From UHGV virus genome UHGV-0071294: 37,551 nucleotides of DNA. One strand, given 5' to 3'. The DNA is from a virus. Positions 6,929-15,500 of the stretch are shown in pieces. The position numbers and the translations under genes were made by a program. Positions within the stretch are counted from its first letter, which is position 1; every line of letters starts with the position of its first letter. Below the pieces are notes generated by a model that worked only from the letters and a program-made list of their open reading frames with translations, did no database searches and was not told the origin of the DNA.

Positions 6929-7011
6929 TGACCTGGCCTGAAGCATTCACAACGGTAGGAATTGCGATGGCGGTGGCGCTGGTGGTGTATTCGATTTGCC
7001 GTTGGGGATAA
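6928..7011 (+). CDS. small membrane peptide (27 aa, MTWPEAFTTVGIAMAVALVVYSICRWG)
   Basis: Strong RBS CAGGAGG 7 nt upstream; TAATG overlap with the preceding stop; single hydrophobic helix. Translated by hand, too short for the ORF track. Confidence 0.35.
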   Translation: MTWPEAFTTVGIAMAVALVVYSICRWG

Positions 7012-9866: not shown

Positions 9867-10241
9867 ATGCGTATAGAGTTTGTTTTGCCTTACCCGCCAA
9901 CGGTGAACACCTACTGGCGACGTCGTGGCAGCACATATTTTGTATCAAAAACCGGTGAGCGTTATCGCCGGGATGTGGCACTTATTGTTCGCCAGCAGCA
10001 ACTGAAATTAAACCTGTCCGGAAGGCTGGCGATAAAGATTATTGCAGAGCCACCGGATAAGCGCCGTCGTGACCTGGACAATATTCTGAAAGCACCACTG
10101 GATGCGCTGACGCATGCGGGACTGCTTATCGACGACGAGCAGTTTGATGAAATCAATATTGTGCGCGGTCAGGTCGTTCCCGGTGGGCGGTTGGGCGTGA
10201 AAATTTACGAAATAATGCATGACGGGCAGGTCAAAAAATGA
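9867..10241 (+). CDS. rusA: Crossover junction endodeoxyribonuclease RusA (Holliday junction resolvase)
   Basis: Segment IKIIAEPPDKRRRDLDNILKAPLDALTHAGLLIDDEQ matches E. coli RusA ([32 protein letters not shown]); lies immediately upstream of Q. Confidence 0.85.
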   Translation: MRIEFVLPYPPTVNTYWRRRGSTYFVSKTGERYRRDVALIVRQQQLKLNLSGRLAIKIIAEPPDKRRRDLDNILKAPLDALTHAGLLIDDEQFDEINIVRGQVVPGGRLGVKIYEIMHDGQVKK

Positions 10242-11059
10242 AGCTGGAAGATTTACCGAAATACTATTCCCCGAAATCGCCTGGCCTGACCGATGCGTCC
10301 GCCTCGACATCAAAAGATGCGCTGAGCATCACTGATGTGATGGCTGCGCAGGGTATGACACAAAACCGGGCTGAGATGGGGTTTTCTGCGTTCCTGGGGA
10401 AAATGGGCATTAGTATGAATGACAGGGCGCGGGCAACAGAATTACTGGCAGATTATGCATTAAGTCAGTGCGATCGCGTGGCGGCGTTAAGAAAGCTTCC
10501 GGCAGAAATAAAACCGGCAGTGATGCACATTATGGCCTCGTATGCCTTTGAGGATTATGCCCGCAGCGCAGCGAGTAAAAAGCGATGCCCTTGTTGCCGA
10601 GGGGAAAAATTTATTGAAAGCGAGGTTTTTACAAACAAGGTCCAGTATCCGGATGGTAAGCCGCCAGTATGGGCAAAGTGTACAAAAGGCGTGTATCCGT
10701 CTTACTGGGAAGAATGGAAAAAAATCCGGGAGGTGGTGAAAGTTTCCTGTCCTGAATGTAAAGGGAAGGGGGAGATTTCGACTGCCTGTAAAGATTGCCG
10801 TGGGCGTGGTGTTGCCATTCATCGTGAAGAATCAGAAAAACGGGGTATGCCTGTTATCAGGGACTGCCGGCGTTGTGGCGGTCGTGGCTATGAAAGATTA
10901 CCGTCAACGGAGGCATTTAATGCCATATGTGGGGTGACAAATCAGATAACACGCGCGTCATGGGAAAAAACGGTTAAGCAATTCTATGACACGCTGGTGG
11001 TTCGGTTTGACATTGAAGAGGCATGGGCGGAGCGACAGTTAAAAAAGGTAACCAGATAA
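10238..11059 (+). CDS. Late-gene antiterminator Q-like protein (zinc-finger-rich)
   Basis: Multiple CxxC pairs (CPCCRG, CPECKGKG, CKDCRGRG, CRRCGGRG); position between rusA and a PR'-like promoter plus terminator. Confidence 0.65.
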   Translation: MKLEDLPKYYSPKSPGLTDASASTSKDALSITDVMAAQGMTQNRAEMGFSAFLGKMGISMNDRARATELLADYALSQCDRVAALRKLPAEIKPAVMHIMASYAFEDYARSAASKKRCPCCRGEKFIESEVFTNKVQYPDGKPPVWAKCTKGVYPSYWEEWKKIREVVKVSCPECKGKGEISTACKDCRGRGVAIHREESEKRGMPVIRDCRRCGGRGYERLPSTEAFNAICGVTNQITRASWEKTVKQFYDTLVVRFDIEEAWAERQLKKVTR

Positions 11060-11064
11060 CAAGG

Positions 11065-11092
11065 TTGATTTTTCCGGAATCTGTGGTAAATT
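11065..11092 (+). promoter_or_regulatory. Putative late promoter PR' (-35 TTGATT, -10 TAAATT)
   Basis: 16-bp spacer; -10 as recalled for lambda pR'; immediately downstream of the Q gene. Confidence 0.4.
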
Positions 11093-11140
11093 CGCCCTAA
11101 CGATGGGCGTTTTGTGCCTGGCGTTAGAAGAATCTTTACA

Positions 11141-11164
11141 GCCCGCCATCGAGCGGGTTTTTTA
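11141..11164 (+). terminator. tR'-like intrinsic terminator
   Basis: Hairpin CCCGC-CATCGA-GCGGG followed by TTTTTT, about 60 nt downstream of the putative PR'. Confidence 0.5.
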
Positions 11165-11285
11165 TGCCTGGAAAATGGTGCAGAACATCAAACGCTCTGG
11201 TGGTTGCAAATACTGGTCTTTCGGCTTGCATTTTTGTAAAGCGATATATACTTATCTTACAATCAGTAATGTCAGGTAAGTTGAT

Positions 11286-12026
11286 ATGAATGAAGCCTGT
11301 TCTGTTGTTTTTGTTCATTCCCCGTTTGTTGTGCTCTTTGAAGGAAAAGAGCTCTCTCTGGAAAGTGGTAGTGCACTTCTTGTCAGGGGGGGAGCTGGAT
11401 CGTTATTGCCCTTTTCGGAATGTTTTCGGCGAATAAGTCTCAGTGAATCAACAATTATCCGTTACCTGTTGTGTGGAGACGAAAAACAGGATGTAGTTTT
11501 AGTCCGGCAAATACCACGATATCTTTGCGTGAGTTTTCCCAAGGCAGAATTGATGGGCATCCTGATTGATTATCTCTGTGAGGAAAAGATTCATACGGAC
11601 AATTTAGCGGAAATGCTTTCCTTTTCGTGTCTGGCGTTTTTCTCATCAGAGAAAATGTTTTCGTCGTTTCTGACCGCGTGTATTGGCAATATTAGTGACA
11701 GGCTTAGTGCATTGTTTCGTACGGACATTGCAGCAAACTGGACTCTGAGAGATGTGTCTTCGCGGTTATGTATCAGTGAAAGTTTGTTAAAAAAAAGACT
11801 GAAAGAAGAAGGCACCTGTTTCAGTGAGTTGTTGCTTACAGAGAGAATGAGAATGGCAGCAATGCTGTTGAATCAATCTCGTTGCGCCATCAACAGAATC
11901 GCTGCTCAGTGCGGCTATAATTTTACATCTTATTTTATCAGCGTATTCAGGAGTTATTTTGGTGTTACACCGGCAGGTTACAGGATGGCTGCATTCAATG
12001 AGATGAGTTCTGGCTCCGCGCAATAA
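11286..12026 (+). CDS. AraC-family transcriptional regulator (cargo gene)
   Basis: C-terminal AraC-type HTH pattern (WTLRDVSSRLCISESLLKKRLK...INRIAAQCGYNFTSYFISVFRSYFGVTPAGYR); AT-rich; sits between Q/tR' and the lysis genes; possible own promoter at 11226-11252. Confidence 0.8.
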   Translation: MNEACSVVFVHSPFVVLFEGKELSLESGSALLVRGGAGSLLPFSECFRRISLSESTIIRYLLCGDEKQDVVLVRQIPRYLCVSFPKAELMGILIDYLCEEKIHTDNLAEMLSFSCLAFFSSEKMFSSFLTACIGNISDRLSALFRTDIAANWTLRDVSSRLCISESLLKKRLKEEGTCFSELLLTERMRMAAMLLNQSRCAINRIAAQCGYNFTSYFISVFRSYFGVTPAGYRMAAFNEMSSGSAQ

Positions 12027-12406
12027 TAACTGAATTTTGCAGTCATTGTATGCAGGCACGTTTTGGGGGCATTATTCTTTGTGTGCCAGGCATCCCTGGC
12101 AGCTCTGGAGAGAGGGTTCCCTGTTCAGTCTGATGGTGGCGAAGGACTGGTGAAGCGCAAGAGCGTAATGTGATTGGTGTGGAACTGGAAGAATAGAGAT
12201 TTAATCAGACTGTAACTGAAATAAAAAATAATCGTTAAATATGCATGTTGTTTTTTATAAAATTCAGAAATAATAAAAATACATGCGTATATTTACGAAT
12301 ATTGACATGATTTTTATTGAAAAGCGAACTGGTATTATTAATATCAGCCTCCAGTTCCGGCGGGGATGTATAGCGTGGTCATTTTTATTTCTCTTGAGGA
12401 ACTAAT

Positions 12407-12482
<76 letters not shown>

Positions 12483-12485
12483 TAT

Positions 12486-12560
<75 letters not shown>

Positions 12561-12924
12561 GATGTAAACTGACAAGGCGAAATTTTGGTACTGTTTTTTG
12601 GCACTGACACATTATATGTGGGATGTTTTCTGACTCCTTACCGCATCCTGTTCCGTAATGAAGGTGATTTGTTATGGTTCCAGTGCTGATTTTTTTACGA
12701 TACCGGAATGGTGCATTATCGGTGGAGATTTTGTATTTCCTGGCAGGGTCGGTGATGCATCATTCCGGTGTTGTAAAATACACCGCAGGGGCGTTCCTCA
12801 GTGCGAGGGTGGTTTAAAGAGTGGGTTTAGCGGGAAACCACGGTATTCATGTAGAAGTGGATACTTCGGGAGGCACCCGACACCTCTGGATACAATCAAA
12901 ACATTGCGTTATTAATGCCATTTA

Positions 12925-15056: not shown

Positions 15057-15500
15057 CAGGCATTACAGCAGCCCTTCAGTGTGAGGGGCTGCGATAATGT
15101 TTTTGGTTTTTGGCTTTTATACCGCCACGGAAAGCAAGAGGGGAAATGTCTGAACCGAATTATGGGGTGATTAGGCATTGCCGTTTCCTGCTGCGATATT
15201 TTTAAGTTATCGGAAGGTAGCTGTGGAGTGTTTGGTCGGAAGGCGTAACAAATTTCCGGGGAAGGGAAAGTATTAGTTTGAAAACTAATGTCCAATTAAA
15301 CTCTAACATGCGTCCCTGTAAACAATAACAAGTAAGCAATCAGAGTCTTTCTAATTTACGGGAGGATACTCCCGTACTTTTTTAAAGGCAACGTGAATTG
15401 CAACGTTTGTGATGTTTACGGGTAAACAGTAACGCTTTTGATATGAATGTTTTTATCTGGTTGCTGTTTTATTCAGTTAATGTTTATAGGGAATCTTTCA

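Follow-up and report, generated by a model that had tools for sequence, protein, structure and literature searches.

What is an AraC-like regulator doing between the antiterminator and the lysis genes of a lambdoid prophage? The question is raised by the virus genome UHGV-0071294, a stretch of 37,551 nucleotides (nt) that is hereafter called the window. An open reading frame (ORF) on its plus strand, at positions 11286-12026, starts with ATG and encodes a protein of 246 amino acids (aa), which an earlier note made from the sequence alone had presented as a regulator with a clear AraC-type C-terminal helix-turn-helix (HTH), encoded by an AT-rich gene. This ORF is a real, selectively maintained AraC-type regulator, correctly located by that note, and by its sequence it belongs to an uncharacterised subfamily of the clade of GadW, YdeO, AppY, PatE and PsrA/B rather than being a generic AraC protein. 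The reading that we favour, with a probability of about 60%, is that of a functional AraC/XylS activator carried as self-contained late-operon cargo of a lambdoid prophage, with a dual mode of expression and acting on the acid-fitness genes of the host; transcription pattern, DNA targets and phenotype are what we infer in this account.

A double helix-turn-helix protein

Profile searches scored the ORF well above the Pfam cut-offs for both HTH_18 (51.6 bits, cut-off 33.6, aa 158-233) and HTH_AraC (49.9 bits, cut-off 26.6), which bears out the HTH announced by the earlier note. The AT-richness is equally clear, with a guanine plus cytosine (GC) content of 42.8% for the ORF, 49.4% for the neighbouring Q gene and 51.1% for the whole window. 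The 246-aa protein has the C-terminal domain of ~100 aa with two HTH motifs by which AraC/XylS regulators are recognised, and a Pfam match and a PDB match support this DNA-binding domain, placed at aa 136-232 (11691-11981, plus strand). The PDB sequence match in question is the DNA-binding domain of GadX (3mkl, E = 1.2e-22). In the model obtained with AlphaFold2 from a nine-sequence alignment, whose mean predicted local distance difference test score (pLDDT) is 63, only the DNA-binding domain is confident, with seven helices and means for ten-residue blocks of ~59-95, being 74-95 over most of it. The N-terminal domain (aa 1-135; 11286-11690, plus strand) finds homologues solely inside the clade and is presumed to have a role in dimerisation or signal recognition. 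The regulator is also a full-length match to the PHROGs family phrog_1450 (E = 1.8e-55), which is annotated as of unknown function.

A subfamily of the GadW/YdeO/PatE/Psr/AppY clade

The best NCBIfam model for the regulator was YdeO, with 147.2 bits and residues 2-230 aligned to model positions 2-228 of 253, and the runners-up were GadX and then HilD. An assignment as YdeO itself was rejected, given that the equivalog model NF007407 has a cut-off of 348 bits, and the protein is a relative at the level of a paralogue and not an orthologue. For reference, the annotated genome of Escherichia coli O157:H7 EDL933 supplied PatE and a Psr-type gene, and that of E. coli K-12 supplied AppY, YdeO, GadW and GadX. 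The Psr-type gene, EDL933_RS10010 (1,905,274-1,905,987), was used as the probable PsrB, an assignment made by position only; PsrA and PsrB are ~90% identical to each other. Aligned end to end by BLASTP (residues 1-232/245), the regulator was 38-39% identical to PatE, 36% to GadW, 36% to EDL933_RS10010, 35% to YdeO and 30% to AppY, whereas GadX and EnvY aligned only from ~residue 107. With such identities to EDL933_RS10010 and PatE, and placed in a separate 50%-identity cluster, the protein was also discarded as an orthologue of PsrA/PsrB or PatE.

A close-up view of the multiple alignment reveals two shared signatures. The first is an MxxxCSV N-terminus common to the clade and the regulator, where M1 and C5 are invariant and S6 and V7 nearly so. 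The second is the recognition helix of the first HTH, which is almost unchanged across the clade (SESLLKKRLK in the regulator, SESLLKKxL being the common form), with S164, S166, L167 and K169 invariant. In this regard, K169 aligns with K170 of AppY, the site of the K170E DNA-binding mutant (PMC10057817). Identity to the clade members reaches 43-49% in the DNA-binding domain and 21-31% in the N-terminal domain, where GadX shows 16%. The clade is small: of 1.84 billion cluster representatives at 50% identity, only eight reach 1e-30 or better, and full-length alignments number a few dozen. The cluster of the regulator is represented by the protein P0004 (82% identical), and the next nearest one by P0012, which is 42-43% identical to the window protein and 54.5% identical to PatE. 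All these likenesses had been overlooked by the earlier note, and by sequence kinship this well-studied clade points to the acid-fitness island of the host and not to fimbriae. No relevant paper came out of a literature search on AraC genes located behind antiterminators.

The slot between Q and the lysis genes

The location of the gene is that of a classical lambdoid cargo. Upstream of it lies a late-gene antiterminator Q of the phage-82/Qin type (10238-11059, plus strand; 273 aa; Pfam Antiterm PF03589, E = 1.1e-53), whose DNA is 87.6% identical to the Q region of the EDL933 prophage CP-933N. Q is followed by a candidate late promoter PR' (11065-11092, plus strand), read by eye as TTGATT (11065-11070), 16 nt and an extended -10 element, TGG-TAAATT (11084-11092). 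It matches 8 of 12 consensus positions, hence its absence from the list of the promoter scan, and it is kept in strain STEC308 and in the P0004 context. Next comes the intrinsic terminator tR' (11140-11165, plus strand), detected by the terminator scan and by RNA folding as a 7-bp G+C-rich stem (hairpin at 11140-11159) followed by T6; a hairpin with its T-run occurs at this column in all six related loci, one of them with a different stem sequence. Downstream of the regulator, two tRNA genes were found on the plus strand, a tRNA-Thr with anticodon TGT (12407-12482; ARAGORN, Rfam 69.8 bits) and a tRNA-Gly with anticodon TCC (12486-12560; ARAGORN, Rfam 65.6 bits), and near the gene Rfam gave no further family at either the gathering or the E = 1 threshold. 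They are followed, in order, by two holins, an M15 endolysin, a FaeG-like gene and the small terminase subunit. The regulator thus sits on the late-operon strand, 3' of Q, PR' and tR' and 5' of the holin and endolysin genes, in agreement with the Q-to-lysis cargo slot proposed by the earlier note.

This position is a recurrent one. In all the contexts examined that include upstream sequence, the regulator follows Q. These are STEC308, ETEC1730, a Logan contig and two draft genomes from NCBI, and two different Q families are involved, PF03589 (STEC308, ETEC1730 and the P0004 contigs) and PF06530 (the P0003 contig). Other members of the clade keep the same slot: the Psr-type gene of EDL933 lies between a DUF1133 gene, at the Q position, and tRNA-Ile/Arg; a Psr-like AraC gene in phiSTEC1575-Stx2k is followed by tRNA-Met/Arg/Arg and then by stx2k; another member occurs between Q and the holin in Lambda_ev203; and P0012 is encoded directly 3' of a PF03589 Q. 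The mention of lambdoid conversion genes at this place in the earlier note agrees with the stx2k and Psr-like genes of phiSTEC1575-Stx2k and with the Psr-type gene of EDL933. The location is at a prophage end, and not in the Q slot, for PatE, AppY and a homologue in mEp332.

The region downstream offers some observations of its own. The tRNA-Thr(UGU) and tRNA-Gly(UCC) of the window hold the position of ileZ-argN-argO in Shiga toxin (Stx) phages; the same pair occurs in strain A36, and tRNA-Gly alone in prophages of porcine enterotoxigenic E. coli (ETEC). Between tRNA-Gly and the holins, a near-perfect hairpin of ~30 bp (12693-12778, plus strand) folds with -52.7 kcal/mol (z = -6.9 against shuffles) and gave weak miRNA-like matches only in Rfam; possible roles are in termination or processing behind the tRNAs, or in recombination.

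A mobile cargo cassette

Comparison of junctions among prophages delimits a mobile cassette at 11230-12060 (plus strand), in which the ORF is accompanied by ~56 nt on its 5' side and ~34 nt on its 3' side, with a GC content of 41.6% against 51.1% for the window. The left junction, at 11229/11230, was mapped by local BLASTN and alignment against CP-933N, a second EDL933 locus (L006) and the Stx2k phage. CP-933N shares Q, PR' and tR' with the window but has TerB as its cargo, and since its homology to the window stops at 11229, the AraC-specific cassette begins at ~11230. The right junctions vary with the prophage: 12009 (H5/H6), 12060 (STEC308), 12076 (L013) and ~12210-12224 (L002, L010, L011). 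The low GC content and the sharp left junction agree with those of a moron, an autonomous cassette of promoter, gene and terminator. The neighbours of the cassette also vary among prophages and can be a DNA methyltransferase, tRNAs or TerB.

A detail of the right-hand side is that alleles with 99% identity match only nucleotides 1-724 of the 741-nt ORF, so that one right-hand recombination junction falls within the gene itself, in the last 17 nt of its 3' end (12009-12026). Such a junction changes the last residues of the protein, for example ...NEMSSGSAQ versus ...NEMSLSVTQE.

A Chi-like octamer, TCTGGTGG (11195-11202, plus strand), lies in the shared late-operon leader ~30 nt to the left of the cargo junction. 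An exact Chi (GCTGGTGG) occupies the same column in 5 of the 6 loci, the window itself reading TCTGGTGG, which suggests, from this sequence pattern, that cargo exchange at the left junction may be stimulated by Chi. As a side observation, the window contains nine exact Chi sites (GCTGGTGG) against 1.55 expected from shuffles, at 6978, 8846, 8903, 9436(-), 9488(-), 10993, 13082, 13432(-) and 18793, and eight of the nine fall within 6.9-13.5 kb, the nin/Q/lysis region.

Distribution and selection

At the DNA level (>=90% identity), 65 of the 5426 complete E. coli genomes (1.2%) carry the subfamily, mostly bovine, ovine, porcine and wildlife isolates that include Shiga toxin-producing E. coli (STEC) and porcine ETEC/O139. 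Psr-type genes are found in 726 genomes, mostly of enterohaemorrhagic E. coli (EHEC) and with a median of two copies per genome, and PatE in 658.

Selection was examined in a set of six alleles, the window copy and five more from complete genomes, draft genomes and metagenomes (75-98% protein identity). The ORF is intact in all six. Pairwise ratios of non-synonymous to synonymous substitution rates (dN/dS) range from 0.21 to 0.39 at dS values of up to 0.66, and for this reason the alleles indicate that the regulator is under purifying selection. Regarding the start of the gene, the RefSeq orthologue in ETEC1730 (NZ_CP122832.1; L002 8000-8947) is annotated with 315 aa, beginning inside the PR'/tR' leader, and P0002 with 308 aa. 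Given that M1 and C5 are invariant in the clade and that the terminator hairpin falls inside the extension, the sequences indicate that both annotated starts are over-extended by ~60-68 codons.

Expression and proposed mechanism

Two modes of expression can be envisaged for the gene. The first would make use of a promoter of its own. A conserved upstream block (11225-11258, plus strand), revealed by the alignment of alleles, contains the hexamers TTGCAT (11226-11231) and TATACT (11247-11252) as a candidate promoter, and 33 of its 34 columns are invariant across the six alleles, with the preceding sequence (11160-11217) being poorly conserved. Taking as reference the four-fold degenerate sites of the ORF, of which 67% of the columns are invariant, such conservation has P ~2e-5 for the 33 of 34 columns and ~1e-4 for the cassette-specific 29 nt, values that are post hoc, the block having been picked after viewing the data, and are indicative only. 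A promoter belonging to the regulator is thus plausible from the sequence. TATACT followed by TA resembles -10 elements of the sigma-S type, and the candidate may be of this class, which would fit the dependence on RpoS reported for patE (PMC10877973). The promoter scan listed another site instead, TTGTAA-18-TACAAT (11234-11263, plus strand), which was rejected as a conserved promoter, its -10 element varying to TGCGAC (ETEC1730, P0005) and TACAGT (P0004). The comparison of alleles speaks in favour of TATACT as the -10 element.

The second mode would be Q-dependent read-through, as advanced by the earlier note. The gene lies on the same strand, 3' of tR' and inside the late operon, and from this gene order and the lambda paradigm read-through into the regulator can be soundly expected.

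Altogether, a mechanism can be proposed. In the lysogen, expression from the promoter in the conserved upstream block would be low and probably condition-dependent, and this promoter, with its -10 element TATACT, may need sigma-S and be kept silent by H-NS, in line with reports on the relatives. Upon prophage induction, additional transcription would be provided by a Q-modified RNA polymerase passing through tR'. The two HTH motifs of the protein would then bind AT-rich promoter DNA and activate host genes, most likely gadE and hdeAB of the acid-fitness island, with an increase in acid resistance. In hosts positive for the enterocyte effacement locus (LEE), type III secretion would be indirectly lowered.

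Targets and alternative readings

The case for these targets comes from the clade. All its characterised members, GadW, YdeO, AppY, PatE and PsrA/B, activate gadE and/or hdeA, and the Psr proteins and PatE thereby reduce LEE type III secretion (PMC10877973, PMC10057817). Because the recognition helices are common to the clade, the same genes, gadE/hdeA of the acid-fitness island, are by analogy the likeliest targets of the regulator, for which we would give slightly better than even odds.

Several points weigh against the reading of a self-contained, dually expressed regulator of acid fitness. In the structural model the N-terminal domain has low confidence, pLDDT being 55-72 over aa 1-60 and under 50 over aa 58-134. 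The conserved upstream block was chosen with the data in view, and a short tract such as this could be kept identical by recombination too. The TTGCAT/TATACT pair is weak by sigma-70 rules, its -35 element matching 3 of 6 positions and its spacer being of 15 nt, and the four promoter-like sites of the region are no excess over the 3.2 +/- 1.7 seen in shuffles. Of the candidate promoter named by the earlier note, the hexamers are found where they had been placed and TATACT lies in a conserved block, but the pair itself is a poor one. The terminator scan found no intrinsic terminator 3' of the ORF at 12027-12406, hence the cassette is not a textbook moron. Finally, with identities of 30-39% to the characterised relatives and of 21-31% in the N-terminal domain, the targets could differ, and AppY itself also controls hya, cbd-appA and biofilm genes.

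This last argument is the core of the best surviving alternative, a clade member with another host regulon, which would activate or derepress H-NS-silenced genes outside the acid-fitness island, for example anaerobic or stationary-phase, biofilm, envelope or host-specific colonisation genes of animal-associated strains. The same modest identities speak for it, as do the wide regulons possible in the clade according to AppY (PMC10057817) and the origin of the subfamily's carriers in cattle, sheep, pigs and wildlife, with LEE-negative porcine ETEC among them. Against it stand the recognition-helix residues common to all gad-linked members and the fact that the characterised ones, from five separate lineages, all converge on gadE/hdeA (PMC10877973, PMC10057817). 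We regard such a regulon as a serious though minority possibility.

A more speculative variant, which we find rather unlikely, is that the subfamily may be more than a duplicate of PatE or Psr. Its N-terminal domain has diverged while its place behind tR' is strictly conserved, for which reasons the regulator could be coupled to induction. It would be made in bulk only when Q fires and would reprogramme genes of the host or of co-resident prophages during the lytic cycle, or in a spontaneously induced subpopulation, with surface structures as targets, or an orphan F4-like subunit using a host chaperone-usher system; or it would serve a ruminant/porcine colonisation regulon distinct from the acid-fitness island.

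The orphan subunit deserves a closer look, as the earlier note had conceived of a link between the regulator and this FaeG-like gene. It is located at 15447-16274 (plus strand) and belongs to the F4/K88 family of fimbrial subunits (Pfam Fimbrial_K88, E = 4e-48). Its true start is likely an internal ATG near 15501, which gives MKKTLIALAVAASAVVSGSAMA. It stands as an orphan flanked by the lysis genes and the small terminase subunit, has no chaperone or usher in the window and falls in no PHROG family. Only two of the 5426 complete E. coli genomes (52F4 and CEA224S) have it in full length, and among the cargo genes of the window prophage this may be the scarcer and odder one.

Under a fimbrial explanation, the regulator would act locally on prophage cargo, above all on this subunit 3.4 kb downstream. 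Both full-length FaeG-like copies do lie in prophages that also carry a regulator allele in the Q slot, but these prophages are near-identical and the two co-occurrences count as one lineage, whereas 63 of the 65 genomes with the regulator lack a FaeG-like gene and the cassette, with its changing neighbours, moves independently. In strain A36, the same lysis-terminase slot holds a FaeG-like allele, a diverged one, and the Q slot contains a GIY-YIG nuclease, a methyltransferase and tRNAs and no AraC gene. The fimbrial regulators Rns, CsvR and ToxT are indeed the second-best structural relatives by sequence, but the homology to Rns covers only aa 87-231 (67 bits), in contrast with the full-length alignments of the gad clade. 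The F4 (K88) fimbriae, moreover, are under the control of FaeA/FaeB and Lrp, no AraC protein being known to take part, which also counts against this option. The proposed link did not hold up to these comparisons, and local control of the fimbrial subunit is quite unlikely. An assignment of the protein to the Rns/CfaD/AggR/ToxT type was equally rejected, the PDB matches starting at aa 67-111 and there being no adjacent fimbrial operon.

A regulator of the phage life cycle (lysis timing, late genes or superinfection) instead of a host-directed conversion gene would agree with a location inside the late operon, just 5' of the lysis genes, where the gene would be co-induced. It seems very improbable when many related lambdoid prophages, built on the same Q, leader and lysis modules, lack it and have TerB or another cargo in its place, when low GC and sharp junctions mark the regulator as exchangeable, and when PatE and AppY, at the ends of defective prophages, act on host genes (PMC10057817). 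Just as hard to sustain is a silent or decaying passenger gene lacking a current function, which would suit an AT-rich, likely H-NS-silenced and rare sequence but not an ORF intact in all alleles with the low dN/dS given above and conserved DNA-binding residues and upstream block.

Implications for phage-host regulation

AraC-like regulators borne by prophages are one route for temperate phages to rewire core stress and virulence circuits; in EHEC, such regulators raise acid resistance and damp type III secretion. The window gene adds to them a rarer, uncharacterised subfamily whose carriers are mainly E. coli from cattle, sheep, pigs and wildlife, with STEC and porcine ETEC among them. Several subfamilies of the clade appear repeatedly in the stx slot behind Q, with a sharp junction in a shared, Chi-bearing leader. 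Were this subfamily to drive gadE/hdeA, it would offer another phage-supplied path to survive gastric acid in strains from animal reservoirs. As the concept of prophage acid-resistance regulators is already established, the gain is an incremental one.

Comparison with known systems

The fimbrial regulators Rns, CfaD, CsvR and ToxT share with the window protein the double HTH of the AraC family and are the second-best PDB sequence matches, with 56-67 bits. They differ in that the match (Rns, CsvR, ToxT) begins at aa 67-111 and ends at ~aa 231, leaving the N-terminal domain unmatched. The recognition helix is also different, SEITIRKRLE in Rns versus SESLLKKRLK in the regulator, which moreover has no adjacent chaperone-usher operon.

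Much closer is AppY of the DLP12 prophage of E. coli K-12, a prophage-encoded member of the clade with the equivalent lysine and a direct activator of gadE, among other genes (PMC10057817). Its identity of 30% is nevertheless the lowest of the set, and appY lies at a prophage end beside ompT and not in a Q slot. YdeO and GadW are also alike end to end (35-36%), with the same conserved DNA-binding residues and with YdeO as the best NCBIfam model, but they are core genes of the chromosome, whereas the regulator is prophage cargo.

The Psr proteins, PsrA and PsrB, are secretion regulators of EHEC O157:H7 and belong to the same clade, and their slot is the same one, directly after a Q-like gene and directly before prophage tRNAs. 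They differ in sequence (36% identity for the Psr-type protein) and in abundance (726 genomes versus 65). Reported activities of Psr are binding to the promoters of hdeA and gadE and, through GadE/YhiF, repression of the type III secretion system (PMC10877973). As for the location of these genes, psrA (z1789) was placed in OI-50/CP-933N (PMC10877973), and in the CP-933N region of the current EDL933 assembly (NZ_CP008957.1 1,625,001-1,690,000; L004, L005) neither the annotation nor tblastn gave any AraC-like ORF. The Q slot of CP-933N contains there a TerB pseudogene and nanS-p-type cargo. Given the median of two Psr-type copies per genome, the second copy of EDL933 must lie elsewhere in this assembly.

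Finally, PatE (Z0321), encoded in OI-8, the CP-933H remnant of E. coli O157:H7 EDL933, is the nearest of the reference proteins. It is borne by a prophage, has 247 aa and is 38-39% identical from end to end; both proteins start with the MxxxCSV motif, and the helix of PatE reads SESLLK(K/R)KLK. Its gene differs in its location, which is not behind Q but beyond the tail-fibre and pin genes, where a degraded prophage ends, in belonging to another 50%-identity cluster and in being ten times commoner than the regulator subfamily (658 versus 65 genomes). Its reported effects are activation of gadE, gadBC and hdeAB and a decrease in LEE expression (PMC10877973).

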